Assembly (NCBI RefSeq): GCF_964355755.1
Contig: NC_092676.1
Span: 4,317,888 to 4,381,887, forward strand
Source: Antedon mediterranea
Taxonomy: Eukaryota; Animalia; Echinodermata
Direction: 5' to 3'
Length of the DNA: 64,000 bases
Positions within the stretch are counted from its first letter, which is position 1. Each line of letters begins with the position of its first letter. The notes beneath the pieces are model-generated. The model ran no database searches, was not told the DNA's origin, and saw nothing but the letters and a program-made list of their open reading frames with translations. Below are positions 1,462-27,894 of the stretch, in pieces. Both the position numbers and the translations under genes were made by a program.

Positions 1462-1463
1462 TT

Positions 1464-3943: not shown

Positions 3944-4015
3944 GTCTTTGGGCAGGAACCAAATAAGTACATTACAAGCCAATGCATTTGCTGGTTTGAC
4001 AGCATTGGAAACACT
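3944..4015 (+). CDS. LRR cassette exon (LSLGRNQISTLQANAFAGLTALET)
   Basis: ttttaag|G...CT|gtaag, 72 nt, open frame. Confidence 0.85.
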
Positions 4016-7000
4016 GTAAGTGTATTGCTTATGTTTGCTTACTTTTACAATTTGGTTTTAATATAGAAATTAAATATAAAATTATTTTACATTGTTGGTT
4101 AAGCAATGATAATGGATTATTATTGTTACTTAATTGTACACTTTGTGATCTAATAAAAATATCTTTATAAATCACTAGTTTTTAGTTCATCCACCATGAA
4201 TGAACTTTATTTTGGTGTAATACATAATAATTCAAAATTAATATTAATTGTAAAATTGTATAATATAAATATCATTATAATGATTGTTATGCTAAATAAT
4301 TAGTATTTGTTTATGTTGTAATTTTGTTTTATGAGAAAAAAATCATCAAAATATAAATACATATTATATATTTTGACATTATTAAAATATTGATACAAAC
4401 AGGTGTGCTTGCATTAATATTATTATATAATTTCACAATTTGTGATCATGTAAAAGATATCTTAAAAATCACTAGTTTTTTGCTCATTCACCATGAATGA
4501 ACTTTTTATAATATATAATTCAAAATAATTGTTATTGTAAATATCACAATATAAATATCATTATAACAAATGTTACTAAATAATTAATATTTGTTTATGT
4601 TGTAAGTTTGTCTTATAAGAAAAAAAATTATTGAAATATAAATATATATTGTGATCATCTTATACAAAATCAATAGTTTTAGTTCATCCACCATGAATGA
4701 ACTTTATTTTTGTGTAATACATATTAATTAAAAATAATAATAATAATTCAAAATCAATCACTATATAAATATCATTATAATAATTACTATTTGTTTATGT
4801 AGTGATTTTGTTTTATGAGAATAAAAATTATTAAATATATATTTTATATTTTGACATTAAAATGTTGATACAATACAGTGCATGTATTGTAAGTTCAATT
4901 GTAATAATGGATTAATATGTACTTTATGATTCAATGATTATTTACAGTAAAACCATTTTAAAAAGCAACAATTTTAAAATGTATCCACCATGATTGAACT
5001 ATTTATTTGTGTAAGATACTAAATATGTATTACATATTAGAAAATACATTTATTGCATGGTTGCTAACAAACAATTTGAATTTGCTGTAAAATTTTCTTT
5101 TGTGAAAATAAGTCATTTAAATATATTTACCACATTTTTATTTTAACATAGTATATTTTGTACATGACTAAAGTACATAAAATAGAGTACATGCAGTATA
5201 ACTACTGTATAATGTACAGGAATGTAGACATTTCAACATTTGAGGTGACAGAAAAACTAAAATAATTTAAAAACAGCTTGGATATTGTGATTTACTTATA
5301 CTGTGCATTCTTTTTACTTTTAAGGTATTTGAACACTAACTTAATAAGTACATTACAAGCCAATGTATTTGCTGGTTTGACAGCATTGGAAACACTGTAA
5401 GTGTATTGCTTATGTTTGTTTACTTTTACCAATTTGGTTTTAATTTCGAAATTAAATGAAAAGTTATTTTACAAAGTTGGTTAAACAATGATAATGGATT
5501 AATATTATTATATAATTTCACAATTTGTGATCTTATAAAAAATAACTTAAAAAATCAGTAGTTTTTTGCTCATCCACCATGAACAAATTTTAATTTTTTA
5601 AATATTATATAATAATTCAAAATAAATTTTTATTGTAAATGTCACAATAAAAATATCATTATAACAAATAATACTAAAACTAAATAATTAGTATTTGTTT
5701 ATGTAGTGATTTTGTTTTATGAGAATAACAATTATTAAAATAGGAATATATTTTATATTTTAACATTAAAATATTGATACAATACAATGCATGCATTGTA
5801 GGATCAATTGTAATAATGGACTAATCATATGTACCTTATGATTTCATGATTATTTACAGTAAAAAGAATTTTAAAGTCAACATTATTTTTATTTGTAATT
5901 TATCCACCATGATTGAAGTATATATTTTTGTAAGATATAACAATTGAAAGTGAATCTGTATTTAATACATAATAGATAATACATTTATTATATGGTTGCT
6001 ATCAAACAATTACATTTGGTGAAGACATTTTATTTTAAGAAATTAAGTTATTAAATTATATTTACCACATTTTTATAAAACTGACAAAATGTTTCTAAGT
6101 AGGCCTAATCAATATTTGTTTATGTACATTTTTGTTTATTTTAACAAAATAAGTTATTAAAATATACATTTGTATTTTAACATAGTATATTTTGACATAA
6201 CTAAAGTACATACAATAGAGTACATGCAGTATAAACTACCGGTACTGTATAATGTACAGGAATGTAGACATTTCAACATTTGAGGTGACAGAAAAACTAA
6301 AATAATTTAAAAACAGCTTGGATATTGTGATTTACTTATACTGTGCATTCTTTTTACTTTTAAGGAATTTGAGATGGAACCGAATAAGTACATTACAAGC
6401 CAATGCATTTGCTGGTTTGACAGCATTGGAAAAACTGTAAGTGTATTGCTTATGTTTGCTACTTTTACAATTTGGTTTTAATCTAGAAATTAAATTACAA
6501 ATTATTTTGAATTGTTGATTAAGCAATTATAATGGATTAATATTATTACATAATTTCACAATTTGTGATTGTATAAAAAAATATCTTTATAAATCACTAG
6601 TTTTTAGTTCATCCACCATGAATGAACTTTATTTTTGTGTACATAATAATTCTGAATTAATCTTAAATGTAAAATTTCACGATGTAAATATCATTATAAT
6701 GATTGTTATGCTAAATAATTATTATTTGTTTATGTAGTGATTTTGTTTTATGAGAATAAAAATTATTAAAATATAAATATATATTTTATATTTTGACATT
6801 AAAATGTTGATACAACACAATGCATCCATTGTAGGATCAATTGTAATAATGGAGTAATATGTACTTTATGATTTTCTATAATTTCACAATTTGTGATCTT
6901 ATAAAAAAACTTTAAAAATCAATAGTTTTTTGCTCGTCCAACATTAACAAACTTTATTTTTTTGAATAATATTATAATAATTCAAAATACATTTTTATTG

Positions 7001-10000
7001 TAACTGTCACAATATAAATATTATTATAACAAATGTTACTAAATAATTAGTATTTGTTTATTTAGTGATTTTGTTTTATGATAATAAAAATTAATAAAAT
7101 AAAAATATATATTTTGACATTAAATATTGATACAATACAGTGCATGTATTATAGGATCAATTGTAATAATGGACTAATAATATGTACTTTATGATTTCAT
7201 GATTATTTACAGTAAAACCAATTTTAAAATCAACATTTTTAAAATGTATCCACCATGATTGAACTATTTATTTTTGTAAGATCTAACAATTGAAACTGAA
7301 TCTGAATTACATATAGATAATACATTTATTATATGGTTGCTATCAAACAATTTGAATTTGTTGACATTTTGTTTTCAGAAAATATGTTAATCAAATAAAT
7401 TTACAACATTTTTATTTTAACATAGTATATTTTGACATAACTAAAGTACATACAATAGAGTACATGCAGTATAACTACTGTATAATGTACAGGAATGTAG
7501 ACATTTCAACATTTGAGGTGACAGAAAAACTAAAATAATTTTAAAACAGCTTGGATATATTGTGATTTACTTATATTTATTACCAGCCAATGCATTTGCT
7601 GGTTTGACAGCATTGAAAACACTGTAAGTGTATTGCTTATGTTTGCTTACTTTTATCAATTTGGTTTTAATTTAGAAATTAAATGAAAAATTATTTTACA
7701 TTGTTGGTTAAACAATGATAATGGATTAATATTATTTATAAAATTTCACAATTTGTGATCTTGTAAAAACAAACTTAAAAAATCAATAGTTTTTTGCTCA
7801 TCCAACATGAATGAACTTTTTATAATATATAATATTTCAAAATGATTTTTTATTGTAAATGTCACAATATAAATATATTTTTGTAAATCAACAATTTCAG
7901 CCGTCGGGCTGCATGTTTTTTATTATATAAACCTGAATAAATAAATAAATAAATTATTACAATTGATCCTACAATACATGCACTGTATTGTATAAACATT
8001 TTAATGTCAAAATATAAAATATGTAATCACTACATAACAAATACTAATTATTTAGTATAACAATCATTATAATGATATTTATTGTGAAATTTTACAATTA
8101 ATATTATTTTTAATTATTATGTATTACAGAAAAATAAATTTCATTCATGTTGGATGAATTAAAAACTAGTGATTTATAAATTTATTTTTTATAAGATCAC
8201 AAATTGTAAAATTATGTAAATTATGTAATAATATTAATCCATTATCATTATACAGTTGTTGTACTGCATGTACTCTATTGTATGTACTAGTGATGTCACA
8301 ATATGATATGGGTAAATAAAAATGTATATTTTAATAACTTATTTTATCAAAATAAAATGTCTACAAAAAATTAAAATGTTTTGATAGCAACCATATAATA
8401 AATGTATTATCTATATGTAATACAGATTCGGTTTCAATTGCTATGTCATGGTGGATAAATTTAAAAATTGTTGATTTTAAAATTAGTTTTACTGTAAATA
8501 ATCATGAAATCATAAGGTACATATTATTAGTCCATTATTACAATTGATCCTACAATGCATTCACTGTATTGTATAAACATTTTAATGTCAAAATATAAAA
8601 TATATATTTATATTTTAATAATTTTTATTCTCATAAAAAAAATCACTACATAAACAAAATACTAATTATTTAGTAACATTTGTTATAATGGTATATATAT
8701 ATATATGGAAACACAAATATTTAAAAAAATACCAAAATTTATACAAAATATAAAAAAATTTGAAAAATTCAGTTAAAAAAATAAAATTATGTTAAAAAAA
8801 TTACAAAATTTATATACAAATGCATAGGCCTATATATGTAAATATTTATAACATAGCCATCTTCAGCGTGATCAGTTTAGGTACTGTTTAAATTAAGGAT
8901 TCTACTTATAGTAAGGGCAGGCGAGGTCTTAAGACGGTTAGTTCTACAAACAGGTATATTAATTAGGGGTTTATGGACTAATATGTACTTTATGATTCCA
9001 TGATAATTATTTACAGTAATTTTGTTTTAAGAAAATAAGAAATAAGTTATGAAAATATATTTACAAAAGTATATTTTGACATACTAAAGTATACAATAGA
9101 TGGATTACATGCAGTATAGTGTATTTACTGTACTACAATTTAGTTTTAATTAAAAAGGTAAATTAGAAATTGTATTTTACATTGTAGAACAATTATAACA
9201 AAATATTTAATATATAATTTCATTATTATGTGATTATAAGTTTAAACCCCACCTCACCAAAAAAAACCACAAACAACTGGTTTTTCGTATATGATAATAT
9301 AGGCCTAATAAATCAAATATCAATTTTCAGTTGTTATTTTACAATATAAATATCATTTAAAATATCATTTAAGTTAATTTTACTACATTTAGTATTTGTT
9401 TACTTTAACCAGAAAACAAACAAAAATAAAAGGGATAAATGCAGTGTTTATATTACCGTAAATCAATAGATAATTGGCAACTAACTTAATTAACTGCTAA
9501 AGCCCAAACTAGCAAGACCATAATGTGCATTATTTATCATATACTGTGTATTTTTTATCATTTAAGGTGGTTCATGAATGGTAACCAAATACACACATTG
9601 GAAGCCTATGCATTTGCCGGTTTGGAATCATTGACAGAACTGTGAGTATTTTTTCAATACTTGTACAAACTTCCTTATTTTTAAAAGAAACTTTATTTAT
9701 TGTTGTTTTAGAACTATTCTAATTACTAGATGGTACGCTTGCTTCGCTCGCGTACCATCTAGGTCGTGCCCACAGATGGTTCTCGAATACATAATAATTT
9801 CAGCGTTAAAAAACTGGCGATTTCAAATGTACGTACCGCAGGACAATAATGTCGTTTACAGGAACGGATAAATAGACACTGTGATTTATGTACTAAACTA
9901 AAATTAGCACCCTGGGATTTACTTCCGAAAGAGAAACTTGTCACAAAATGAGACCAATTGTTTAAGTCAAATTTAAACAAACTTAATTTGTGTTTTATAT

Positions 10001-13000
10001 GTAACATTAGGGTTGAGGGATGGAAGAGGAACAATTTTTAAATATATTCTTTATCCATTTAGTAACGAAATATTAATTGTTTTCATGTTTTACAAATAAT
10101 GTACCACTAAACCATGGAGGTATTTATACCCCCATGACTAAACACAAGTAAAACATTGCGATGTAATACTTTGTTGAAACTATCACCGTCCTAGTCGATT
10201 GAAAAGTACAGTACGTATAACGATACATCACTACGACGTGTATATGTTTATATAATGTAAAACAATTTGTGAAAACCACCTCTATTCGGGGCAAATCATA
10301 AATTCGATTTAATCGTCAATAAATATTAAATTATCTAACTCAACTTAATTAGTAGGCCTAATGGTTTTCAATTGTTTCTTAGAGCTAATTCATACTTAAG
10401 TTGGTTCCTACCCTACCCACCAAAGTTGTTCTGCGTTTAGGGCATGTGATGCACTGTAGGCCTATCCTCTACTAAACATTCTAGAAATAACGCGCTATTT
10501 ACCGAATTTTGCCCTTACGTAAATTTATATATAGATTCCAGTTGATACTGTATGTCATACTGCCCTAATATTGCTGTAACACCGGTGCCAATCAATTTAC
10601 ATCTAACAACATGAATTATATTATTGTTTATATACATGAAAATTTTATTCAAAGATCTCTTTTGTCAATACATTTTTTATTAATGAAAATTTACAATCAT
10701 ACAGTATCAAAACAACTTGGATGTATATGATTTTAATTACTATGAATCATTTTATTTTGAAGACGTTTGAATGGTCACAAAATCAGTACATTGCCAGCTA
10801 ATGCATTTAATGGTTTGACAGCATTGACAACACTGTAAGTGTTTTATTTAGTTCATAATACTTTTATAATTATTTTTTTTAATTATACATTTTAAAATAA
10901 AATTTAATGAGAAAAAAGATAGATGCTGTTAATTTTACTCATTTGTTCTTTAGAATGGTTCCGAAACGTTGATCTTTTTTTGTCATTACATTTTATTTTA
11001 AAGTTATGTAGTAAACGTCTCTTAATTTGTAATTATGAATTCCTTTTTAAATTATAGTTAAATGTAAATCATGCAATTTTCTAAATGCAAATTTTAATGT
11101 AATGGTCCTATAGAGTAATTGTTTCACTTCATTTAATAATTAATATTTGATTAAAACTCCGAACAATGGGTCTTGATGTCCCCTTAAGGAGGTCCAGTAA
11201 TATCATTTTCAGTATTTCTATCAAAATTATATTTACTGTCAAAAAGTATTTAGGTAACCGGTTACGGGATTATAAATACATGAAAAACCCCTTATTGTCA
11301 AAAATTGTCTGTGTGCCTATGGTACAGTAATATACGTTTATACAAATGTATTGATTTGCAATGAATGGAACATTCCAAATTATTTGGTTTAACCATACTT
11401 GCATACCTCTATGGTTTAACACAAGTAGGTAAATTGATAGACCCTTGGAGAATAAACAGAAATAGTACTGTAATGCTATACAATACTGCAAATAGGTATT
11501 AACCACTTTTGATCGCCATTTGAATCAAAAGTGTGTTGTACTGTTAGATATAATATAAACAAATATACTAATAAACTTTATCACTTATTATAAACACATA
11601 ATAATATAATACTTTATTACTGTCAGTTGTTTCTCAACGTTTGTATTAATTAATAATTACAAAAATATAAACGTATTAGTGGTCTTTAAATGTACTTTAC
11701 TATTTCAATCGACCATGAGACAGTGACAGTTTATAAAGTATTAAATCGGAAATGTTTTACTCTAATTAGTGGTATATTATTTATAGTATTAAGTAATGAA
11801 GGAAGAAAGTTTGTGGAAACAAACATATTGAATTTGAATTTAAATAATAGGTGTTTAAGACTATCTTCTGTTAGTTGAGGAACATAGATTTAAGTATTTT
11901 TAAAAATTGTATTTATTTTGTTAATGCAAATTTTTAGAATTGTTAATTATACAAAAAAAATTGTTTTTTTTTCCTGTCCTCTTTTGGAAGTCTGTTTAAT
12001 AAAAGGCCAAGTAATTAAATAGAAAAGACACACAAAGACTTTTGGGCGAGTGTCCGTTATGAGAGTTGTCCATTTACGAATGGTGTCCACACAGGGAGTT
12101 TTGGACCATTACTTAGGAAAGATAAAGCATCAAACTTTACAGTTTATTCTTTATTCTTTGTAGAAGGTTGGACGATAACCAAATAAGGAAATTGCCAGCA
12201 AATGCATTTAATGGTTTGACAGCATTAAAAAAACTGTGAGTGTATCTCAAATTTATCCCAATTCATTAATTTACGTTTTAGAATAATGACAGATTCATAT
12301 TATTTAGTTTATCATTTCATAATGTGATCTTGTAACAAACAATTAATGAGAGGCAATGATCACCCAAGATCCATGAAATAACACCTTTGTACCAATAGGG
12401 TTACATGCTCTAGCATAATTTTAAAGGAAAAAAATTCACAAGAAAAGTTTAAGACTAATTAGCCGTGGATGGAAGAAGAAATATAATCAGAAAAATAAAG
12501 GGGTAAACACAGTGTTTATATACGGTAAGGTGTAGAAATCAATAGATAATTCACAACTAACTTAACTGCTCAAGCGTAAGCTAGCAAGACTATATACTAT
12601 GCATTATTTATTATTTAAGGCGAATGAATGGTAACCAAATACACACATTGGAAGCCTATGCATTTTCTGGTTTGGAATCATTGACAGAACTGTGAGTATT
12701 TTTTCAATACTTCACTTTACCAACTTTCTAATTTCAAAAGAAATTGATTATTGTTTAGAACCATTATAATGTCAAATTATTCCAGTTAATACTGAATGTC
12801 ATATAGACTGCCCTAACAAACATTGAGTAAACAGTGTCAGTCAATGGAATTACAATGAACAACATGAATTATATTGTGATCCTTTTGATTCCAAGATATT
12901 TTTTGTCACAAAAAAAGAAATAATGACATTTTACCATAATACTGTATCAAACAACTACTATATATATATATATATATGATGTATATATTATATGATTTTC

Positions 13001-16000
13001 CTTAGTATGAATTATTTTATGTTGTAGTCAGTTAAGAAAATAATATCATAAAGTAGTTAAGTGTACTGTAGATTTGAATCCAATTTGTTTGCTAAATATA
13101 AACGAAATATTTAACAAAGACACTAAGTTAGGGAAGGGCCGGACATATTGATAACCTTTGTAAAAATACAAAGAAAACAAATAGGTGTTTTATATAAACT
13201 AAGATATTTGGTTTCTTTTAAAATAAATATTAATTTTAATATATAACTTCTTTATTTTACCGTTATTATTTATGGTATAGAAGTCTGGGGAAACACTCAT
13301 ATAATGTTACATTTTCTGATTTCATTTTATATAATTGTTTAAACAACTTAATATTATAGATGTTTAAAAGTTATGTTATATGTTTTGTGTTTTAATTATT
13401 ATCATTTGTATTTATTATTTATATGCTATATTCATTTAATAACTATATCGGCGTCTATTAAAAAATTATTTATGTGTTACATTTCGAAGGCCAAATCTCG
13501 CCAACCGAAAGCTTTTTATTTAGTCGTTTTGTCAAATAAGTAAATCATGTAATTATTATTATTTTACATTTTGTAAAAAAAGTCAAAAAGACTATGCATT
13601 ATATTAAATAAAATAAACAGAAGGGCGTGAAAGATTACTGCAATTTTTGACTAAAAATCATGATCCTAATACATTAAAAGTTTTAATTTCTTTTGTGAGT
13701 TGTTGAAGCTTCCATAACATGAACAAGTGTTCGTTGCTATAGGTGTTTAGACAATCTCCTGTTAGTTGAGCAACATAGATTTAAGTAGTTTTAAAAACTG
13801 TATTCATTGTGATAATGCAAGTTTTTAGAAGTTAATAATACAACAAAAAATGTTTTTTTCCTGTCCTCTCTTGAAAGTCTGTTTCAATTATTAAATAATA
13901 AATTATTTTACATTGTTGGTTAAGCAATGACAATGGATTAATCACAATTTGTGGCTTATAAAAGATAATTTTTAAAAATCACAGTTTTTAGTTCATCTAT
14001 CATGAATGAACTTAATTTTTTTTTTAATTATTCCAAATCATTTATCCCCAAGTCAATTACAGTTTTCAACAACACCATTACTAGATACTTTGGTTCTGTT
14101 TAAGTAAATTGTTGTGTACTAGATGGTACGCTCGCTTCGCTCGCGTACCATCTAGGTCGTGCCCACAGATGGTTCTCGAATACATAATAATTTCAGCATT
14201 AAAAAACTGGCGATTTCAAATGTACGTACCGCAGGACAAATACATGTCGTTTACAGGAACGAATAAATAGACAATTTGATTTATGTACTCAACTAAAATT
14301 AGCACCCTGGGAATTACTTCCGAAAGAGAAACTTTTCACAAAATGAGACCAATTGTTTAAGTCAAATTTAAACAAACTTAATTTGTGTTTTGTATGTAAC
14401 ATTAGGGTTGAGGGATGGGGAAGAGGATGGGTGCAAAGAGGAACAATTTTTAAATATATTCTTTATCTATTTAGTAACGAAATATTAATTGTTTTCATGT
14501 TTTACAAATAATATACCACTAAACACAGTAAAACATTGCGATGTAATACTTTGTTGAAACTATCACCGTCCAAGTCGATTGAAATAGTACAGTACATGTA
14601 ACGATACATCACTACGACGTGTATATGTTTATATAATGTAAAACAATTTGTGAAAACCACCTCTATTCGGGGAAAATCATAAATTCGATTTAATCGTCAA
14701 TAAATATTAAATTATCTAACTCAACTTAATAAGTAGGCCTAATGGTTTTCAATTGTTTCTTAGAGCCAATTCATACTTAAGTTGGTTCCTACCCTACCCA
14801 CCAAAGTTGTTCTGCGTTTAGGGCATGTGATGTACCGTAGGCCTATCCTCTACTGGTTTTACAACGCTACTCATGCCAGTGAGAGAAGGGTGATGATGTG
14901 GGTGGTTTAATTGCAATAATAAAGATTTGTACATAATATACGGCGAGTGAAAACTCTAGCTCATTATCCGTTTAAAAAAAAATGTATATCCAACCACTGC
15001 AGCACAGATTGAAAAAAAAAATGGATCGAATTTCTGTTATGAGTATACAGTACTTGCCTTTACGACGCCTGAGGGAATAGACACTTGAGGAACAGAGATT
15101 GGAATGTTCCATTCATCGCAAATCAATACATTTGTATAAACGTATATTAAATCTATCAAAATAATATTTTTTAAAGAAAATCGGCCTTTCTTCAACATTA
15201 TGATGCTGTACTCGAGCTGTTCAACCGGTTTTCAGCTATTAAAAACAATTATCGTAGGAGGAAATAGGAAAATGCGAAGCATCCTCGTATTATTGTGTGC
15301 GGGTATTTTTCAAGACGGAAATCCATTAGACAGTGTATACCACGATCGAAAAACACCCCTATTTGGGGCAAATCGTTGAACCTAAATTCGTTTTAATCGT
15401 CAATAACTAATTATCGAACTCAATTTAATTAGTAAACAGGGTTACATCAAGTGGTTAAAATCAGTACCGAAAGTACGAACCAACTTTATATACCATCGAG
15501 TAAACATTCTAGAAATAACGCGCGATTTACCAAATTTTGCCCTTACGTAAATTTATATATAGATAACGTTTATGTGTAGTTTGTATAGCGTGTATAATGT
15601 TCTCATATATTTATTCATTTCTTAAAATAGTGTACAAAAAAAAACAGATTTCTGATTTGTTTTATTGAATCCAATTAATGCTGTGAGAGCAGCGAATTAT
15701 TAATGTTATTATAAAGCAATATGTAGAGACAGCAGACTTTCTTCATCGGCATAATACTACTACTGTAGTTGGAAGCAGGAGTACTTGTTACTCAGTATAA
15801 CATTTTGATTTTCAATCATTCTGGAAGTATCCATTCATAATGTAATAATAATTTTACATTGCAGGTTAAACAACTATAACAATAGATTTAATATTATTAT
15901 ATAATTTTATTATGTGATTTTATAACAAATTAGTTACAAAAAAAAAACCCAAAAACAACCGGTTTTTAATTAATTCATAATGAATTATTTTTATTTTTTT

Positions 16001-19000
16001 GTAAGATAGGCCTAATATAAATATAATTTAAGTGAGATTTTCTACATTTAGTATTTGCTTATGTAGTGATTTTGTTATCAAATTATAAATATATTTTTTT
16101 AATATTAACAATTACTTTGTATTTCTCTTACTTTGAAGGATATTGCACATCGGGCAAGTCATTGGATATCGGTATTTTTTTTAAAAATTATTCTTATGAA
16201 TTTCTTTTGATTAATAATTCATTAGTTCAATATATGTACTGCAAAAATGAATTCATATATGCCATGCAGTTGTTTGAAATGTTTAATTTTGATAACACAT
16301 CTAAGTATAGCATTTAAATATTTCCATTCCGTTCAGGGTTAAGTGGTACTACTATCACTACAGTTTTCCTTAAAACAAATTAGTTTACGGCCATTGCGGC
16401 TCTTCTCCACGTTCAAACATTTGAGAGACATCTATTTATTTCCTTTGAGACTTATTATAGGCTAACATTGGCAGAATTGTAAATTGTTATAGAAATTTGT
16501 CTTGCGACATCAACATAAAGTCTAAAAAAAGCACAAAAAAAATAAGTGTAATGACAAATATGCTTAATTTTGTATAAAATTTAAAGTAATTGAGTAAACA
16601 ATTTTTTCTTTCCTTTTCACAACATAATTTAGGTGGCTCTGAGAACAAATTTGTAATTGTTTACTTATAATATTAAATATCAATGAATAAATGAATGTGA
16701 ACAAAACAAGGCTATCAAATTAAATTAATGAAATCACTTTTTCTAAACCTTAAACCTATTCTTAAAAAAACAAGGCCAACATCCATTAAGTCGCGTGCTA
16801 CAATGCATAGTGATACCGGACCGACCGACAGACCGACCGACCGGCATAGTGAACAATAGAGTCGCGTCCACGCGACTAAAAAGGCATAATTTTGACGAAT
16901 TTTTGAACTTTTTCATCAAAAACGTGCGCAAATTATCCAATTCGACGTGCTCGTATGACGTAATTTTAAGTCAAAACTGTTTAAAAGTTGGTAAAATTAT
17001 TAGAAAAGGCTGCAAAAACATAAATCCCGCGAAAAAAGTATGTATTTAACGCTACGTGCGCACCGCGCGCGTAAACATTTGCGCGCGTATGGGAATTTTT
17101 GACATGCTCAAAATGACAAGAAACGCGTAGAAAGTTGATTAAAAATTAATTTTGCGCATTTTAAAATTTTAAATGCGCGCGCGCGCGTAACTTTGTGTAA
17201 AACACACATTTTTTTTCAACAGAAAGTTAGCGCCTGATATGAATTAAACTTTTGCAAAGCTTCAATTTAAAATGTTATTTGGTTTTTGCCCTATGTTTAA
17301 TACGAGAAAATCGTTAAATCGCGCGTAAATCACGTTGCGCAACTCTAACGTCATTCAAAATAGGATGTCCACAATTTCACGTAAATGCCCACATGTTGAC
17401 AGTTCAAAAAGTACAGAAAAGCAATAAAACCCATAGTAATACCGGACCGACAGACCGACCGACATAGTGAACTATAGAGTCGCGTCTACGCGACTAATAA
17501 ACTTGCCTAACATTATTCAAATTGCTTCTTATACTTCTACCTTTTTACTAATTCATTTCTTATACTAATGTATAATCTTGTTCCAATAAGCATGATTATT
17601 TTGTGTAATCTTCATAATGAAACTTCATTCAGTACCATTTTTTTGTAAAGACCTGTTTCATTTATTGAGTTGCAGGCTGCATTGCAGCGGTGATAACTAA
17701 TGGTTTTAATATATTGTAGTTGAAAACATATAATTTACATCAAAAATTAAATACTGCAATTTTTAGTCGCGTGGACGCGACTCCATAGTTCACTATGTCG
17801 GTCGGTCGGTCTGTCTGTCGGTCCGGTATCACTATGCGTTTTATCGCTTTCTGACCTTATCTTGATATCAGTTTAATCTAGCTAAGTCAATTTTTCACAG
17901 TATATTCCTTATGGCCAGGAATCGATGTGGTTATGTTTTCCCGGTGCGCAATAACAAATTACGCGGTCTACGCACGACGATTTAACGAAATCACGTTTGT
18001 AATCATATCTTCAAAACCATGAATCACAATTAAATAAAATTTGGTACTTGTAAATTACAGGGCATAAATCATCATATGGCAATACAATTACATGCGTAGC
18101 GCATGTAACGCATGCGTACGCGCGCTTACAATTTTCAAAATTTATTTTCGATGAAATAAGAGTACGTTTCAGGCAATTTTAAGCGTTTACAAAATTGCCA
18201 TGAGTGCGCAGATTTTTGCGCGTTAAATGTTATTGCGCACTCTATTTGCCCGATTTCTGTTTTCTTGACTTACTTTTCAACTCGAAATTATGTTATACGA
18301 GCACGTCAAAAGTGTCAGGCTACGCACGTGTAAATTAAAAAAATATAAATGTTTTTAAACATTTCAACATTTTTAAACATGTTCAGTAATTTCGGTCAGT
18401 TGGTAGGTTGGTCGGTCGGTAAACACTAATGAGCACGCGACTGCAGCCATCTATATGGCCTTGTTAATTCATACTGAACTTTTTCTTCAGGCCTGGCGTG
18501 TGGGACTCTAATCAAATACCTACAATAGAAGCCAATTCATTTAATGGTTTGACATCACTGCTACAACTGTGAGTATTTTTTCAATTTGTATACTTCTACA
18601 AACTTCCTAGATTTTTCAAATACAACATATCATTTTAGAATATTTTTCAGTAGATTTTGTATCAAACAAAAATCAGCAAAACATGGCCAATCACAAGATG
18701 GTATATAAAACATCAACATCATCCATGGGTTACCAATGACATCAATCAATTTATCAATATAAAGCATAGACTGTTCAGAAAAGCCAAACGTATTGGTTCT
18801 GTATCTGCATGGGATGACTATAAGTCTATTTGTAATAAGGTTAAGCGTCTATGCAATAAGTCGTATTATTCATATGTCAACAAATTATTTACAAGTGACT
18901 CTACTCGTAAAGCTTTCTGGCGTTTTGTTAGAGAACGTAGAAGATCACCAGAACCCGTTATCTTTTAATATTAACGGTGTGAATGTTTTGTCACACCCTG

Positions 19001-19069
19001 TAATTGCTAGTTCATTTAATTAGGTTATATGCATGATATGCATATAACCTCTTGATTCTGTCAAAATCT

Positions 19070-19112
<43 letters not shown>

Positions 19113-22100
19113 TTCTTTCCTTAGCACTATTTGTCCGTGAATTATCTTGGCATCAGTTTCATCTATCTAAGTCAATTTTTCAGAGTATATTCCTTATGGC
19201 CAGGAATCGATGTGGTTATGTTTTCACGATGCGCAATCAAAAATTACGCGGTCTACGCGCGATTTAACGAAATCACGTTTGTAATCATATCTTCACAAAC
19301 ATGAATCACTTTTAAACAAAATTTGGTACTCATAAATTTCAGGTCATATTTCATCATATGGCAATACAATTACGTGCGTAGCGCATATAACGCATGCGTA
19401 CGCGCGCTTAAAATGTTGAAAATTGTCAGAATTTATTTTCGATGAAATTAGAGTACGTTTCAGGCAATTTTAAGCGTTTAAAAAATTGCCATGAGTGCGC
19501 ATATTTTTGCACGCGCACTGCGCGTCAAACGTTAATGCGCACTGTTTGTGTCCGATTACTGTTGTATAACCTTTCTTTAATAATATCATCATATTTTATT
19601 CACTTTTCAACGCGAAACAGCGTTATACGAGCACGTCAAAAGTGACGGGCTACGCACGTGTAAGTTAACAAAATGGTGAAAATATGCTAAATTTTAAAAT
19701 TAATATATATCGTTAGAATGCTCGGGAACACCTATTTTTTATTTAATTTTCTTGAAGGTATGTATCATATGTATGATTTATTATGAAATTAGAAGAACAA
19801 AAGTTGATTAAGTCATCATTAATGGCATATTAAATTTAACAAAATTAATTTCGACAATCAAACAAATTATAACATTTTCTTAGGCCAAAATAACAAACTT
19901 AACGTTAACTTTCTTCCTTAAGAATTTCATATATTAAAGTTAAAAGTATATAGTTTGACAGTGCATCATTTTTTTAAATTTTTAAAGATATCATCATAGT
20001 AAAACATTTTAATTCATTGCGGTATGTAATAATCTATCTGCACCAAAGTGGTTACTGCATAGTAAATACACGGTGGAATTTTTCTCCAACTTTTAGTCAG
20101 TTGTGTATGGCTCGATGGTCTGTGCTCGTGTCAATGGCATTCAAGGTACCGAGTTCAAGTCTCACCTTGGGAAACGAAATAAGATTTTTTTTTTATTATC
20201 CGTATTGTTCAAATTTATTTCTTAGTGTATAGATTATACACATGATTTATAATGAAATCTAGATAAAAAGTTACTTTATGTCTTTATTATTATGTAACAA
20301 CAAATGCGGTTTATGACATTATACGCAGAGGGATCTTTGATCGGATTGTGATACCGGCTATGGTGTTCGCGTTAGCAAGGTCCTATCATATATTATAAAT
20401 AATTAAAGATTCTGAGAAAATCAATCAATCAATATATCTTTTAAAAATCAATTATCTTTATTTAAATCAATGCATATAACCTATAATTCGTCATAGTGAC
20501 GAATTAAATCTAGTTATTTTTTTGTTTCTGTTTTTAACCCACCCATAATTCCCAACTGTGAACCTCCGGTTTGTAATGTCCCAATCCCTGAACTTTCTCA
20601 ACTTAACTTTAACGTCTACAATGTTGAGAAGGTGATTAATGGACTTTCGTCTAATAAATCTCCAGGTCCTGATTCCGTGCATCCATACATGAAATCTGCT
20701 TCCGAATTTATTGCTCCACCATTATTTAATTTGTTTAACTTGTCCCTGCGTATGGGAGAAATCCCCGCTAAGTGGAAAATGTCCCATATTACTCCTATAT
20801 TTAAATCTGGTGATACAAATGCAATTTGTAATTACAGACCAATATCCCTTACCCTATATGTTCGAAACTGCTTGAAAAAATACTGTTTTCAAGTATATCT
20901 GATCACGTTGCTTATAATTGTCCAATTACAGAAGCCCAGCACGGTTTTTTTCCCTCCCGTTCCTGTGTACCCAACTTACCAACCTAACACCAGAATTGAT
21001 GTTATCTTTCTCGACTACGCCAAAGCGTTTAATAAACTGCCCCACCATATTATTTTAAATAAGCTGGCTAGTCACTTCAATATCAGAGACAATGTCTGGA
21101 AATGGATCAAGTCATTTCTATTGGGACGTTCCCAAAGAGTCTTGTATCAAGGATCCATTAGCCCATCATCCCCAGTTACCTCTGGAATACCACAGGGCAG
21201 CGTACTTAGACCCCTTCTTTTTAACTTGTTTATAAATGACCTTCCCTCATCTATTATTTCTCAATGTGCATTGTTTGCCGATGACCCGATAATTTATAGA
21301 AATATATTTACTGTAGACGATGAAGTTGTTCTTCAGTGCGATCTGATCAGGCTTTCCTCTTGGTGTGATCTAAATGAAATGGAGCTTAACTTAAATAAAA
21401 CCAAGGTTCTCCACATTACAAGATCAAGGAAAGAGTATAGACATGTTTATCGTATAAATGACTTGCCTATTAAATCCGTATCTAGTCATTGTCATTGTCA
21501 TCTGGGGGTCACGATTAATAGTGAACTTACTGGGGATGACCATGTAAACTTAATTATTTCTCGTTCAAATCGAATGTTGGGTTTTATTACTAGTATTGCA
21601 GGAGGATCATCCCCTTCAGCTATTTTCTCACTCTATAAAGCTCTCATTGTCCCCATCCTTGAATATGGTGTCCCTGCGTGGTTGGGTGTCACGAAACCTA
21701 AAACCACGAAAGCTAAGACCCCCTAAGACCTAAGATCACGAAAGCTAAGACCCAAGACCTAAGATTACAAATATTTATCTTTCGCACCTGCCTTGTATTT
21801 TAACTCCCAACATTTATTCTGAATACCACACCTTAGAATTGGCACTTTTATGAAAAAGAATCACATAAAAAGTAACAAATACATTTTTAAATTGATGATT
21901 TTACAGACGTTTTTCTCGCACACAAACTGTTTGCGAATTTCGCATGACTAGCCTACAGTACAGTAGCAGTAGGCCTTCCACCATGTTCAATGTTTTTGTT
22001 TCTATGGAACGTCAAAAGAGCAAAAATTATATAGAGGGCTGAAAACTCTGTGGAGTCCATCTACAGTGTGGATGGAACAATGTAATATTAAAATTGTAAT

Positions 22101-24912
22101 GATAATAATATAATCATGCAAGTACGAAGAAATAAATACTGGCAAATAAATTTTAATTTAAAAATCATGATTTGTTTTGTTTTTCTTTCTGTTTTTATAC
22201 TTGTACTATTATTGTAGCTCTTTTGGCGCTCCATAGAAACAAAAACATTGAGCATGGGGGGAGCTCGAGGAGTTACAGTATACAAAGAAACATGTCTGTA
22301 AAATCATCAATTTAAAGGATTTATTATTTTTTTTTTATGTGTTTCTCCGTCTGAAAGTACTTATAAATCCTAATTTTAAAGTGTGGTATTCAGGATAAAG
22401 TTCGTCAACAAATTTGGAGTCAAAATACAAGAAAGGCAGGTGCGTAAGAAAAACATCCTCTGAACCAACACAATGGAGTAAATATATACCAACAAACAAC
22501 CCGTCAAGTTTGTTTGTTGTAAAGAAAAAAATATACATTTACTCAACGGGCGAAAATAATGTGAGTTTATCTATGTTTTGCGGTAGTATTTAATTATATT
22601 TATGGTAATAAATGAAACCTACTGTGTTTAAAATTATGTATGGATAAACAAGTATTGTTTTTAAGCTGTAGTATATCTTAGAATTTGTAATCTTAGGTCT
22701 TGGGTCTTAGCTTTCGTGATCTTAGGTCTTAGGGGTCTTAGCTTTCGTGGTCTTAGGTTTTGTGACACCCCTGCGTGGTTGCCTCGAACCAAAAAACTTA
22801 CGGAACGTATCGAGGCAGTCCAGCGAAGGGCTACTAGGCTTGTCCTTAAACAAACAAGAGGTGAAATGGAATACGAGGAACGTCTCACTAAGCTAAATTG
22901 ACCAACAGTACTCTCTAATCGAAGAAATTATCTTCTGTTATCCTTTGTTTGTAAATCACTTATGGAACGGTTGATTGTAGTAGGCTAGTATTCGTCAATC
23001 TGTAGTTGTTAATGGCCGTCATCTTGATACACTTAAGTTCATTCATCACTATGCTCGAACCAATTGTCTTCATCATTCCGCTATTAACATATTCCCTAGG
23101 TTATGGGAAGAAATTCTTTAATTTTAGACAGTTTTCCAACATTTTTAAATTCACTTAAATCCCATGTTTTATATTGACTTTGTTGAATCGACTATAAAGT
23201 ATTTTATCCTTTTATTTTATATTGACACTGTTGATTCGTCTATTTGTTATATAAATATTTTTATATAGTTTTTTATATATCATTGTTGTTACATTTGGGA
23301 GTAGGTACGGAACCTGAACTCTTATTATAGTGATTAGGTTCACTTTTAGGTTCCTGCCTACTCCCTTAGTTTCTGTGTTTTTGTATGTTTGTAACTGGTT
23401 TTTGGCAATAAATAATAATAATAATAATAATAATATTTCTTAATACATGGTCTGCTACTTGCTTAATACTACATTGTTTTACCTTGAAGGTGGTTGAGAG
23501 ATTTCAAGATAAGTACATTGCCAGCAAATGCATTTTTTGGTTTAACTGCATTGACATTACTGTGAGTATTTTTTCATGTTATATACTTTATAATTATAAT
23601 TGAATTACTTCATAACATTTTAATTTATGTTATAAGTAAATTTAATATAGTGCTGTAACAAATAATGTATAACATCTAATTCCTTGATATAAAGACTATT
23701 TTAACGTAACAAAGATTTCTGTATTTAAAAAATTGTATTTTATACAAACAAAATGTTTTCCTGTCCTCTTATGGAAATATTTGAGATGATTTAAGATGGT
23801 ACCAGTACAGGGAAAGTAATTTCAATCTTCCCTAATGGTACATACCAATGCACTATATTGAATAAAAAGGACGCACAGACTTTTACGTGAGTATCCGTTA
23901 TGAGGTGTCAATTTACAGGTGGTGTCCACAGAACGTTTTAACTGTATTATGGACCATATCTGAATAAGGCATAGGAAAAGTAAAGCGGACACAATTTCTT
24001 GGATATTTTAATTTCTTTTTGACTGCGTATTCTTTATTGTAGGAGGTTGGACAATAACCAAATAAGGAAATTGCCAGCAAATGTATTTAATGGTTTGACA
24101 GCGTTAACAGAACTGTGAGTATAATATCTTAACCAATTTATCCCAAATCACTACATTGTACAATAAACATGCATGTAGTTTATCATTTTATAATGTGATC
24201 TTGTAACAAAGTGTAATTGAATTTTAATGAGAGATGATGAACCTGGAACCACTGGTCAACTTGCCTGAAATCACACTTTTTACTATAAAAGGGTTAATAT
24301 TCTCTAGCATAAAGGCTAACATTTACATGGTGGGCAAGTAAAGCTTAAAACTACTTAGCGTAGTGGTTTTGGTTGCCAACAAAGCTGTAAATGGAAATTG
24401 AACTTATAAAAACTTTAACCTGAACCAAAAATAAAAGGGGTAAATGCAGTGTTTATATTAAATAATTAGATAATTTGCAACTAACTTAATTAACTGCTCA
24501 AGCCCAAACTAGCAATACCATACTGTGCATTATTTATCATTTAAGGTGGATGGACGGTAACCAAATAAGTACATTGGAAGCCTATGCATTTGCCGGTTTG
24601 GAATCGTTGACGGAACTGTGAGTATTTTTCAATACATTCTAATTTCAAAAGAAATTGATTGTGGTTGTAGAAGCATTTTAATTATTCCAATTAATATTGA
24701 ATGTCATATGGACTGCCCTAACAAACATTGAGTAAACACCAGTGTCAGTCAATGGAATTACAATGAACAACATGAATTATGTTGTGATCATTTTGATTCC
24801 AAGATATTTTTTGTCACAAAAAAAAGAATGAGATCTTACCATATACTGAATCAAACAAATTATATAAAAAAATTCTTTTAATTGTCACATAAATATTTAA
24901 ATTCAATTTGAC

Positions 24913-24955
<43 letters not shown>

Positions 24956-27894
24956 GCAAAAAAAAATTTGTCTTTTTATAAAGTGAAAACATTATTTTTT
25001 TTCACTTTTTTTTCCTACAGAAGTGAATAACTTTATTAAAATTACAAAATGGCCTATTCAAAGACTGATATAGGGGACAATTACATCTTTAAACAAAACA
25101 TATTTTTCAATAAACAAATATATAATTAATTGTCTATTTATTCATCTTTTAACAGGAACTTAGAGAACAACGCTATAACTATCATAGATGCTGAGGCATT
25201 CTCTTCTTTTGCTTCATCACTTTTAATTTTGTAAGTTAACATTATGTAATATATAATTTGCATGTTATTGCCTTCCTGAATGTCCACAACACATAATTAC
25301 GATGACTTGGTTTGTATCAGGATCAGGGGGACATTCCCCTTTGACTGCCTCAGTTGAATTATTTTTAACAATATTGGTGCGTGTGATTTACCACTAAATT
25401 AAAAAATGTTCCCCATTCCATATATCATACAGTAGATGCACACCTGAGAACACATGACTCCGCTACATGCTTATATAATCAGAGCAATGTGTAACTATTA
25501 AGCAATAGTAGAATTATAGAAGAAAGGATAATTGTAAAGCTTGGCACTCTTGCCCCTACCGGCATAAATGTACAATTTAGATCTTTTAAACATTAATTTT
25601 GCCAGAGACATTCACATATTAACAAAATTCACACTTGAAGTTTTTGTCTTTGTTTAAATGTCCTGCTTTATAAGCAACCATTTCTGCTTTGTACCCCAAA
25701 GCTTTTGGAGGCGTGCATTTATAACTATGCCTTTTGTTTTGTTAACATCTTTGATTGGCTGATTTGTTTTATTATGTAATTTTGTGAGTTATATATGTTA
25801 TCCTTTGTTACAATTCTCTTCGCTATGCCCGAAACATGTCGTAAAAATAAACTTATATTGAGGCAGTTTTAGCTTACTTGATCTTGATTTTTTTTCTATA
25901 TCCTGCCTATATACAGCTCTTTGATTTATATTAAGCAATAGTGTTAGTTATCTTTACATGGTCATGTGACAAAACACCTTTCAAACTACTGAAGCTACCA
26001 AAAACTAAAACTCTGTCTACACTATCAAACTAGTTCAAGAACAAAATGTGTCATGTGCCCAAATATGGTAGTAATATGACATAATCGTGTCCACATGGGC
26101 ACATCAAATTGTTTTCACATAAAGTTTGATAGTTTAGCTTTAACCTATTTTGTGTTGTTCACCCACACAAATCTAAATTATTATTCGCTCTGAATAGTAT
26201 TATAATATTAATATGTACATCATATATTAAGTAATGAAGGAATTAAAAAGTGTGAAAACAAACTTATTGAGTTTGAATTTATTGGTTTTTTTTTAGAAAC
26301 TTAAAAGGTAACAAGTTACAGGTTTACAGGGACAGGACCTTTCAACAATTGATAAGCTTAAACGAATTGTAAGTAATGATTTATTAAAATTTGGGCAACC
26401 CAAGTAACTCCCTTGTAAAAATAAATTAATTTATAAAAAAAAAATATTTTACTAATCCCAAAACCATCTGTGAAAGACGGTTACCACACTCACTAGTTAT
26501 ACAATCAACATGATGATTGTGGAAACTTACGATGATAAAGATCTGTCTTGTTTTTCAAAATTTAATTTTGCATGTTTTTTAAATTCACAAATGCGCCACT
26601 AAATTTGTGCTTAAGTCACATGAGCATTCTGTTAATCTAGTCGCAGTGCAGGACTGGAAAAGAAAAGGGAGATACATAAACTTGAATTAGTTGCGTGTGG
26701 GTATTTCAAGAATGCAGGTGGTTGACTAAAAAATGTGCACAAATTTCAAACCTTGAGAATGTTGGTTCTTGAGTATTTAAAAATTTCCCAAAATATAATA
26801 ACATTTTCTTTTAAGATACAACAAAATAATAACTTGGCACTTATTATGTTGCTATATTTGATTCTTTTAGGTACTCGGAATACTCTAGTCTCTGTTGCCT
26901 CGTTGGCGCCATCGATGTCTGCGAGCCTTCAGATGCATTTGCATCGTGTGAAGACTTGCTAAAAAATGAACTTCTCCGTGTGTTGATGATGATTATCGGG
27001 TTATCTTCGGTTATTGGGAATGTTGTTGTTATCGTTTCACGAAAGTTTAAAAAAGATAATGATATTAACAATGTTAACAAAGTCCAAACTACACTTATCA
27101 CCAACCTCGCCGTGTCTGACCTGCTGATGGCAGTCTACCTGATCATCATTGCCAGTGTGGATATACATTACAGAGGAAGATACGGAAAGGTTTCCAGAGT
27201 TTGGAGAAATAGTGTCCTTTGCAGTTTTGCAGGGGCTATTTCTACACTCTCTGGGCAATGTTCAGTGTTTACACTGATGCTGCTTAGTGTGGATCGAGCT
27301 ATTAACATTGTTAATCCATTTAGTACGAAACGCCTCAATCGTACAAAATGTCGAATCATTATCAGCTTCGGATGGCTATTCTGGATTGTGCTGAGTTTTC
27401 TTCCAGTGACAGCCAATGAATTAAGCTTATCGTATTTTGGTGACAATTATTATGGAAAGGAAAGTGTGTGCCTTGCACTACCTTTAACCAGAAGTCGGTG
27501 GCCAGGTTGGGAGTATGCTGTTGCCATTTTTGTTGCCTTTAATGGCGTCGGCTTTTTTGTAATTGTACTTAGTTATCTGACAATTTTCTTGTCAGTGAAG
27601 AGATCGGGGGCCACTGTCAACAGAAGACAGCAGAGAAAAGAACAGTTAAAAATGGCGAGAAAACTAGGCCTGATAGTTTTCACTGATTTCTGTTGCTGGG
27701 CCCCGATTATAGTAATGGCAATTGGTTCCGAGACGGGTTGGATGACGATTCCTGATGAAATATATGTTTGGGCAGCGACATTCATCATACCCATCAACTC
27801 CTCAGTCAATCCGTATCTTTACACAATTGCTTATATGTTTAAGTGCAAAGTGCGTCAACCGGCACCTGTACAGATTCCACTTAATACATTGTAA
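3944..27894 (+). CDS. LRR-containing GPCR, type C LGR (GRL101/RXFP-like); 5' end lies upstream of the window; exons 3944-4015, 5325-5396, 6365-6436, 9567-9641, 10763-10834, 12164-12235, 12620-12691, 18491-18568, 23490-23561, 24043-24114, 24546-24617, 25156-25230, 26297-26368, 26871-27894
   Basis: 13 AG/GT-bounded phase-2 exons of 72/75/78 nt, each one LxxLxLxxNxIxxLxxxxFxGL repeat, joining in frame to a hinge (SLCCLVGAIDVCEPSDAFASCEDLL) and a rhodopsin-type 7TM (NLAVSDLLM, SVDR, FTDFCCWAP, PINSSVNPYLY). Confidence 0.9.
5325..5396 (+). CDS. LRR cassette exon (LYLNTNLISTLQANVFAGLTALET)
   Basis: taag|G...CT|gtaag, 72 nt. Confidence 0.85.
6365..6436 (+). CDS. LRR cassette exon (LNLRWNRISTLQANAFAGLTALEK)
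   Basis: taag|G...CT|gtaag, 72 nt. Confidence 0.85.
7579..7623 (+). pseudogene. Dead LRR exon copy: acceptor and 5' half deleted, donor kept
   Basis: Only ...LPANAFAGLTALKT|gtaag remains; the polypyrimidine/AG and xLxxN codons of sister copies are missing; the cryptic AG at 7585-7586 would give a frameshifting 37-nt exon. Confidence 0.75.
7953..8690 (-). repeat. Inverted segment of the intronic repeat unit
   Basis: Reverse complement of upstream blocks (e.g. ATTATTACAATTGATCCTACAATACATGCACTGTATTG); the right end read on minus continues the sequence broken at about 7879. Confidence 0.85.
9567..9641 (+). CDS. LRR cassette exon, 75 nt (LWFMNGNQIHTLEAYAFAGLESLTE)
   Basis: tttaag|G...CT|gtgag. 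Confidence 0.8.
9726..10535 (-). mobile_element. Non-autonomous Helitron, copy 1
   Basis: Minus strand starts A|TC(TATATATA), ends hairpin+CTAG|T; no TSD; the paralogous empty site AATTATTCCAGTT is seen near 12776. Confidence 0.85.
10763..10834 (+). CDS. LRR cassette exon (LRLNGHKISTLPANAFNGLTALTT)
   Basis: ttgaag|A...CT|gtaag, 72 nt. Confidence 0.8.
11328..11560 (+). repeat. Internal fragment related to the Helitron family
   Basis: Reverse-complement match to about 48290-48515 (AATACTGCAAATAGGTATTAACCACTTTTGATCGCCATTTGAATCAAAA). Confidence 0.6.
12164..12235 (+). CDS. LRR cassette exon (LRLDDNQIRKLPANAFNGLTALKK)
   Basis: ttgtag|A...CT|gtgag, 72 nt. Confidence 0.85.
12620..12691 (+). CDS. 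LRR cassette exon (LRMNGNQIHTLEAYAFSGLESLTE)
   Basis: tttaag|G...CT|gtgag, 72 nt. Confidence 0.85.
14119..15563 (-). mobile_element. Non-autonomous Helitron, copy 2 (longer)
   Basis: Same TC/CTAG termini and hairpin TAGATGGTACGC..GCGTACCATCTA as 9726-10535; extra internal segment about 14855-15500. Confidence 0.85.
16769..17497 (-). mobile_element. DINE-1/HINE-like element(s): short complete unit 16769-16880 plus a longer unit to 17497
   Basis: Terminal hairpin AGTCGCGT(G/A)GACGCGACT, (GTCG/GTCT)n microsatellite, 3' subTIR CACGCGACT; body similar to 1530-1960. Confidence 0.65.
17762..18465 (+). mobile_element. DINE-1/HINE-like element
   Basis: TTTTAGTCGCGTGGACGCGACT 5' hairpin, (GTCG)n, 3' CACGCGACT then GCCATctatATGGC hairpin and TTGTT end. 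Confidence 0.7.
18491..18568 (+). CDS. LRR cassette exon, 78 nt (LPGVWDSNQIPTIEANSFNGLTSLLQ)
   Basis: cttcag|G...CT|gtgag. Confidence 0.75.
19021..20513 (+). mobile_element. Non-autonomous Helentron/HINE-like element inserted in the LINE
   Basis: 5' hairpin AGGTTATATGCAT-gat-ATGCATATAACCT, (TTTA)n, 3' subTIR ATGCATATAACCT, hairpin AATTCGTCA-tag-TGACGAATT (20485-20505), CTAG|TT. Confidence 0.75.
21684..22770. mobile_element. Mutator/Foldback-like non-autonomous TIR element with 10-bp TSD
   Basis: About 90-bp internally repetitive TIRs (GGGTGTCAC...CTAAGAC repeats); TSD CTGCGTGGTT at 21674-21683 and 22771-22780; removing it restores the LINE frame. Confidence 0.85.
21780..22450. mobile_element. 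Long-palindrome MITE nested in the Mutator-like element
   Basis: Arms GCACCTGCCTTGTATTTT...GTTTCTATGGAACGTCAAAAGAGC and GCTCTTTTGGCGCTCCATAGAAAC...AAAATACAAG..GGCAGGTGC; same family at 54435-55262. Confidence 0.7.
23490..23561 (+). CDS. LRR cassette exon (LWLRDFKISTLPANAFFGLTALTL)
   Basis: ttgaag|G...CT|gtgag, 72 nt. Confidence 0.8.
24043..24114 (+). CDS. LRR cassette exon (LRLDNNQIRKLPANVFNGLTALTE)
   Basis: ttgtag|G...CT|gtgag, 72 nt. Confidence 0.85.
24546..24617 (+). CDS. LRR cassette exon (LWMDGNQISTLEAYAFAGLESLTE)
   Basis: tttaag|G...CT|gtgag, 72 nt. Confidence 0.85.
25156..25230 (+). CDS. LRR exon, 75 nt (LNLENNAITIIDAEAFSSFASSLLI)
   Basis: aacag|G...TT|gtaag. Confidence 0.8.
26297..26368 (+). 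CDS. LRR exon (LNLKGNKLQVYRDRTFQQLISLNE)
   Basis: ttttag|A...TT|gtaag, 72 nt. Confidence 0.8.
26871..27894 (+). CDS. Terminal exon: hinge + 7TM + short C-tail of the LGR/GRL101-like GPCR
   Basis: ttttag|G TAC TCG..., in frame with ORF 26956..27894; seven hydrophobic segments; stop TAA at 27892-27894. Confidence 0.95.

Follow-up and report, generated by a model that had tools for sequence, protein, structure and literature searches.

Can a GPCR (G-protein-coupled receptor) have its binding surface rebuilt by the gain and loss of single exons? The question is raised by a locus of the feather star Antedon mediterranea (contig NC_092676.1, positions 4,317,888 to 4,381,887 of the forward strand; this stretch of 64,000 nucleotides is the window to which all positions below refer), in which 13 small exons, each encoding one leucine-rich repeat (LRR), precede an exon for a seven-transmembrane (7TM) domain. 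A sequence-only reading of the locus had proposed an array of hypervariable repeats resembling the variable lymphocyte receptors (VLRs), wired directly to a 7TM, and this interpretation is partly supported. Germline exon duplication, exon death and differences from copy to copy are evident, while the change focused on the concave surface of the repeats is real but confined to the youngest exon family (e1-e3). These data are best read as those of a recognition receptor whose exons are born and lost in the germline under diversifying selection, and the gene may have an immune, allorecognition or chemosensory function. The features of the locus are the following:

3345..7876, + strand: four exon-plus-intron units in tandem (each ~1.0-1.4 kb), with 79-86% overall likeness that rises to near identity beside the exon
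3944..4015, + strand: LRR exon e1 (class A1, SLGRNQ), 72 nt, absent from RefSeq model P0119
5325..5396, + strand: LRR exon e2 (class A1, YLNTNL), 72 nt
6365..6436, + strand: LRR exon e3 (class A1, NLRWNR), 72 nt, variable codons at 6366-68, 6372-77 and 6381-83
7579..7623, + strand: A1 exon, dead, lacking the acceptor and initial codons and retaining the donor
9567..9641, + strand: LRR exon e4 (class C, WFMNGNQ), 75 nt, one extra codon within the strand
10763..10834, + strand: LRR exon e5 (class A2, RLNGHK), ladder Asn changed to His
12164..12235, + strand: LRR exon e6 (class B, RLDDNQ)
12620..12691, + strand: LRR exon e7 (class C, RMNGNQ)
16139..16171, + strand: 33-nt mini-exon of RefSeq models P0119 and P0122, doubtful, disordered in the fold model
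18491..18568, + strand: LRR exon e8 (PGVWDSNQ), 78 nt, core Leu changed to Trp and two codons extra, likely decaying
23490..23561, + strand: LRR exon e9 (class A2, WLRDFK), ladder Asn changed to Phe
24043..24114, + strand: LRR exon e10 (class B, RLDNNQ)
24546..24617, + strand: LRR exon e11 (class C, WMDGNQ)
25156..25230, + strand: LRR exon e12 (NLENNA), constant, penultimate, 75 nt
26297..26368, + strand: LRR exon e13 (NLKGNK), constant, last
26871..27894, + strand: Cys-rich hinge and rhodopsin-class 7TM in one exon including the stop (PF00001, E 6.8e-31)

The 13 LRR exons (3944..26368, + strand) are 72, 75 or 78 nt in length, with AG/GT ends and phase 2-2, and joined in order with the 7TM exon they give 656 codons with the terminal stop as the only one. 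The exon count, phase and frame put forward by the sequence-only reading were borne out, and all 11 strand motifs that it quoted are present. A pattern search caught 10 of the 13 exons, the remaining three being read off the sequence directly; a second pattern matches 13 AG..GT segments in positions 1-28000 compared with none in 50 base shuffles, a rough control, as it had been tuned to these same exons. With a nucleotide exon profile, 12 copies were found at E<1e-13, all on the + strand between 3916 and 24626 and including the dead exon, with no strong match on the - strand or beyond 28 kb of the window. The variable array comprises e1-e11, since the last two LRR exons (25156 and 26297) are constant cap repeats kept throughout the family rather than variable cassettes. 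This exon layout is in itself ordinary because single-LRR exons of LRR-bearing GPCRs (LGRs) are usually symmetric (PMC8286064), in agreement with what had been stated about one LRR per exon.

The closest 7TM relatives of the gene are GRL101-like models of the feather stars A. mediterranea and Anneissia japonica. RefSeq model P0119 is 100% identical to the window from e2 to the stop, although it skips e1, adds the 33-nt mini-exon and starts in an intronic repeat. In a tree of the 7TM domain, built from 136 of 139 proteins (P0001, a duplicate of P0119, and two short fragments were dropped), with no type A, B or C1 sequences and with FastTree local supports only, the gene falls within an Antedon clade of 30 models lacking LDLa (support 1.00), which is sister to an Anneissia clade of 11. 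Crinoid paralogues that do bear LDLa surround the Antedon clade in the tree, and the conserved GRL101 of molluscs and arthropods groups elsewhere. No LDLa was found in the 30 Antedon and 11 Anneissia models, many of which are partial, the 5' end of the present gene being unseen; in the three models whose N-terminus is plausible (P0129, P0088 and P0004), a signal peptide is followed by the Cys cap and then the LRRs, without an LDLa in between. Across three contigs there are nine models whose 7TM identity is 92-100%. Since one GRL101 orthologue per ambulacrarian has been reported (PMC8286064), this expansion is not the conserved orthologue, and strict orthology to GRL101 is contradicted by the separate clade in the tree, the lack of LDLa in the clade models and the multiple copies. 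By sequence comparison, the gene can be assigned to the crinoid (Antedon) GRL101-like, LGR-type receptors as a member of a young multigene family, and the Anneissia expansion is independent of the Antedon one.

The domain architecture is that of an LGR, namely a rhodopsin-class 7TM (PF00001) tied through a Cys-rich hinge to an LRR solenoid, and the 7TM groups with the GRL101-like receptors, that is, type C2 LGRs in the broad sense. RXFP1/2 (type C1 LGRs) had been suggested as the comparator, and RXFP1 is the best match by sequence among solved structures (7tmw, E 5e-75); however, GRL101-like type C2 receptors are the more fitting comparator. RXFP1/2 also differ in being single-copy hormone receptors with one LDLa module required for signalling (PMC4561518), none of which was found here. 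The fold model of P0119 (mean pLDDT 83, pTM 0.69) shows an LRR solenoid followed by seven helices, with one strand per repeat straddling each exon junction and a disordered mini-exon region, and its top fold matches are LGR4, TSHR and FSHR. The available passages on LGR classification and on octopus GPCR expansions (PMC4079206, PMC6408891, PMC11863921) are silent on the crinoid family. Models P0052-P0070 group separately, in a clade of GRL101-like receptors rich in LRRs and poor in LDLa; P0053 from Amphiura filiformis (17 parsed repeats) and the scallop P0002 belong to this clade, which likely represents parallel expansions in other phyla and classes. Another Antedon model, P0007, has a long unrelated N-terminal region and a tail resembling a long interspersed nuclear element (LINE) endonuclease, and is probably a fused gene model.

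Exon birth and death that is still under way, as the sequence-only reading had claimed for this LGR-type GPCR, is supported by three kinds of observation. First, e1-e3 and the dead exon sit in the tandem units of ~1.0-1.4 kb, and e6-e7 and e10-e11 form an older duplicated block (73% over 907 columns). Second, one of those units holds a dead exon. Third, sister genes carry different exon sets. P0122 (two accessions) equals P0119 from e3 to the C-terminus, yet has three different A1-type exons in front, with the motifs DLGSNQ, NLYSNQ and DLRGNQ compared with SLGRNQ and YLNTNL in the window. Likewise, the exon ahead of the constant cap pair is of class C in the window, RLNGHK in P0080 and P0082, and of class B in P0081 and P0120. 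Protein-identical sister models could be uncollapsed haplotypes or very recent duplicates; whichever their origin, the exon string differs where the 7TM does not. Around the same exons, the ~170 nt of intron before each A1 exon (3770-3943, 5150-5324 and 6190-6364) are 94-100% alike over the last 80 nt, far above the remoter intron, which may reflect either conversion or a splicing element, and an inverted, exon-free copy of the A1 intron unit lies at 7900-8700 on the - strand. A protein search with four A1 repeats returned mostly generic LRR proteins, with one crinoid sequence, among the best 120 of 289 matches, and is uninformative on the sharing of cassettes with other receptor types.

Is this turnover accompanied by change focused on the concave face? 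At the protein level, concave positions are less alike than convex ones between the repeats of all 19 proteins with at least four repeats (21 examined), conserved GRL101 orthologues included. The contrast of scaffold and strand was discarded as stand-alone evidence, as every LRR protein tested has it, and because it is generic only a nucleotide-level test is informative. In e1-e3, 10 of the 12 columns in codons 1, 3, 4 and 6 (the x of xLxxNx) vary, as against 2/60 in the rest of the exon, 23/287 in the nearest intron and 105/532 in all aligned intron (Fisher p 8e-9, 4e-9 and 6e-6, respectively). The variation within these codons affects 8/8 first- and second-position columns and 2/4 third-position ones, the interleaved Leu and Asn codons are spared, and the scaffold of e1-e3 shows no synonymous change.

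A fixed-site codon model gives the same picture, with a dN/dS ratio (omega) of 3.74 at six concave positions and 0.60 elsewhere over the 11 exons (likelihood-ratio test p 2.2e-5 against omega 1), and p 1.2e-5 for the A1 exons e1-e3 alone; these p-values are optimistic, since neither gene conversion nor multi-nucleotide mutation enters into the model and either process inflates omega. Independent support for concave-focused change comes from two organisms, whose contigs in four public runs were aligned on e3: of the 24 variants listed, 14 fall in the four concave codons, 8 in the other 60 exon bases and 2 in the intron, and none of these 24 lies at the Leu or Asn codons in between. A separate subfamily shows it as well: in P0131, 11 repeats were parsed on a near-constant scaffold particular to it, with an identity of 0.78 at convex and 0.31 at concave positions.

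Several results weigh against this reading, starting with the inflation of omega just mentioned. In the other eight exons, concave omega is 1.71 with p 0.13, which is not significant, and class C exons have no concave excess. Moreover, the strand register, the core Leu or the Asn ladder is disrupted in each of four exons (e4, e5, e8 and e9), which look decayed; the Asn ladder stabilises the LRR solenoid (PMC4561518). The selection signal rests on three exons plus the paralogues, and the exon strings of these paralogues come from automated models that may miss exons, as P0119 does with e1. A widely varying strand on a fixed scaffold had been described for the entire array: its motifs are real, while four of them (WFMNGNQ, RLNGHK, PGVWDSNQ and WLRDFK) belong to the exons with a damaged core, so that the array is not uniformly hypervariable. 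The claim of surface-focused diversification, and the dN/dS check proposed for it, hold for the youngest family and for the 11 exons together, but not significantly for the other eight.

The 5' end adds to the same side. A tblastn search with ten family models found neither a signal-peptide nor an N-cap exon in 1-3943 and revealed only one 7TM in the window, and a credible N-terminus is missing from all nine of the closest models; for these two reasons, the copy may be 5'-truncated, or the signal-peptide and N-cap exon may lie upstream of the window. Fragments of a LINE endonuclease and reverse transcriptase (RT) occupy 3-1490, ahead of the first exon, and this element may have interrupted or replaced the 5' part of the gene.

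From this evidence it could be argued that the gene is a 5'-truncated, decaying segmental duplicate, whose array arose by neutral slippage of an AT-rich repeat and whose variable codons are conversion patches from diverged paralogues. The missing N-terminal exon with a LINE fragment upstream, one dead and four core-breaking exons, a non-concave omega of 0.4-0.6 and protein-identical sister models that may be very recent duplicates or uncollapsed haplotypes all fit such a history. We nevertheless regard it as rather unlikely. Neither stops nor frameshifts interrupt the 13 LRR exons and the 7TM exon, and the hinge and 7TM have kept every motif; the change falls on first and second codon positions while sparing the interleaved Leu and Asn codons; and both P0131 and the runs of two organisms repeat the concave-focused pattern.

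How the exons are used bears on the VLR-like part of the original proposal. In run X7, which is taken as RNA by guess only, four of the six listed loose ends and one joint were LRR coding in frame across an exon boundary (junction peptides such as LDLRNNKI, LWLYKNQ and LYLSDNQ). This points to paralogous LRR exons that are transcribed and whose splicing keeps the predicted phase; however, these junctions belong to paralogous exons and none to this gene, a further reservation about the favoured reading, and intronless paralogues are a possible source of them. The three other runs had no LRR-coding loose ends in the best 18 of 89, and a depth of 0 at the X7 joint. When the four runs were aligned on 9000-28900, no GT..AG ends appeared among the 15 of 894 joints listed, the tables being dominated by transposon repeats, and the run results listed contained no junction of this gene and no sign of exon skipping or somatic assembly.

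All exons being symmetric, the frame would survive skipping, and each gene could, by skipping LRR exons in various combinations or by somatic rearrangement, give rise to a large set of isoforms, yielding a repertoire on the 7TM at the level of the cell. Repeat exons of LGRs are "sometimes skipped" (PMC8286064), the single-LRR exons of brown-algal ROCO genes are alternatively spliced (PMC11378527), and skipping could rescue the damaged exons. Yet LGR repeat exons are normally symmetric, junctions of this gene were absent from those listed for the runs, isoform tags are missing from the RefSeq names of the nine closest models, and the exons lie all on the coding strand with ordinary splice sites and without a donor-cassette layout. 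Such isoform diversity seems to us very unlikely.

The VLRs of lampreys and hagfishes are similar in their 24-residue LRR modules, with a constant scaffold and a variable concave face, and the gene shows sequence likeness to VLRA chains (2o6q, E 2e-27). VLRs are anchored by a stalk with a glycosylphosphatidylinositol (GPI) anchor or a single transmembrane segment, instead of which a 7TM is present here. A VLR gene is incomplete in the germline and acquires its cassettes somatically, through deaminase-driven conversion (PMC13428168), whereas in this gene the modules are exons spliced within a contiguous gene ending in a 7TM, with canonical splice sites, in order and in one open frame; neither an incomplete germline gene nor unspliced donor cassettes were found, and a VLR-like mechanism is not supported. 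A bolder version would be a GPCR-coupled variable-LRR system in crinoids, in which dozens of LDLa-less GRL101-like genes with arms-race-selected single-repeat exons, multiplied by combinatorial skipping, form a VLR-like repertoire signalling through G proteins. We consider it improbable; if true, an invertebrate deuterostome would possess a VLR-like repertoire with direct G-protein output.

The closest working analogy is the brown-algal ROCO LRR-GTPases, candidate immune receptors in which one 72-nt exon encodes each LRR, exons are gained, lost and inactivated, and near-identical paralogues carry recombined LRR strings with positive selection on the concave face (PMC3341825). The crinoid gene likewise has one LRR per symmetric 72-nt exon with gain, loss and inactivation, and concave positive selection in e1-e3 and in all 11 exons together, though not significantly in the other eight. 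The ROC-COR GTPase domain is absent, a 7TM serving as output instead: ROCO genes have an intracellular GTPase output, while here an extracellular domain sits on a rhodopsin-class 7TM. Another difference is that ROCO genes often have inverted exons on the non-coding strand, none being found in this window by the exon profile. Alternative splicing has been reported for ROCO genes (PMC11378527), and for the crinoid gene no junction appeared among the run results listed. Exon-shuffled, positively selected LRR modules are thus known from algae, and here they occur on an expanded crinoid GPCR family.

Among receptors of its own kind, the gene can be compared with the GRL101-like type C2 LGRs including the SudRes2 cluster of the snail Biomphalaria sudanica (PMC12297450), which share the 7TM and Cys-hinge family, a clustered lineage-specific expansion and a candidate immune role, and in the SudRes2 cluster also gene presence or absence between haplotypes. 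The described GRL101-like members differ in having LDLa repeats (in the snail also a C-type lectin) and a short LRR block, whereas no model of the crinoid clade has LDLa and its LRR block has grown exon by exon with codon-level diversification.

The location of the snail GRL101-like clusters in a schistosome-resistance region (PMC12297450) supports an immune role, and a family of non-self or immune receptors diversified in the germline is, by a little, the outcome we expect, with microbe or parasite ligands as the likeliest driver. The same turnover and selection could also have been driven by environmental or conspecific proteins acting as ligands in chemosensation, settlement or gamete recognition. 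GRL101-like transcripts are enriched in the sensory tentacles of the starfish Acanthaster (PMC6267866), and expression is restricted to the tentacles in the snail Charonia (PMC13403566), reports that count against an immune role, and a 7TM output fits sensory signalling. These reports concern LDLa-bearing or unspecified GRL101-like genes, however, and the repeated turnover of the concave face is like that of receptors in host-parasite arms races (PMC3341825), so that we hold a sensory or reproductive ligand to be possible but unlikely.

For the family of recognition receptors diversified in the germline that we favour, the following mechanism can be proposed. Through unequal crossing-over between the repeated introns, the array would grow at its 5' end; the concave beta-sheet residues of the new repeats would then be altered by selection, and older repeats would drift or decay. 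A ligand bound to the concave face would signal through the conserved Cys hinge to the 7TM with no need of an LDLa module. The source of diversity would be the large number of genes and haplotypes, with exons joined mostly in order in each, without somatic rearrangement.

Such a mechanism would make a diversifying sensor out of a relative of hormone receptors by repeat-exon turnover, in convergence with the brown-algal ROCO genes, and it raises the structural question of how a type C LGR signals without LDLa. Expanded GRL101-like genes, such as those of snail parasite resistance and starfish sensory organs, would gain a testable signature, the four codons per exon. The Toll-like receptor (TLR) multigene families of sea urchins are, like the crinoid family, an echinoderm germline expansion of LRR receptors. 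Unlike the crinoid gene, they signal through TIR domains, and their diversity lies between genes rather than in the turnover of single-repeat exons. Recognition diversity known in echinoderms lies with TLRs, NLRs and scavenger receptors that have expanded in the germline (PMC13428168), a list to which the crinoid family would add GPCRs. A literature search, most subscription papers being outside its reach, returned no description of exon-level diversification in crinoid or echinoderm GRL101-like receptors.

The window also holds mobile elements and other repeats. A Gypsy-type long terminal repeat (LTR) retrotransposon lies at 33781-47695 on the - strand, with a gag containing PNMA and a zinc knuckle, RT/RNaseH and integrase; its LTRs (33781-35356 and 46120-47695, 1576 nt) are 99.94% identical, and the element is young. 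Open reading frames for a DDE_Tnp_4 transposase and a Myb/SANT protein at 37862-40893, between its RT and integrase, likely represent a nested transposon, which we take to be of the PIF/Harbinger family. The intron between e8 and e9 contains a LINE RT fragment (20500-23100) interrupted by a 1.1-kb insertion with inverted ends (21672-22768), which the contigs of three runs skip. Finally, two tandem copies of 274 nt, 99% identical, are found at 31401-31955, after three older repeats of ~330 nt (30404-31402).

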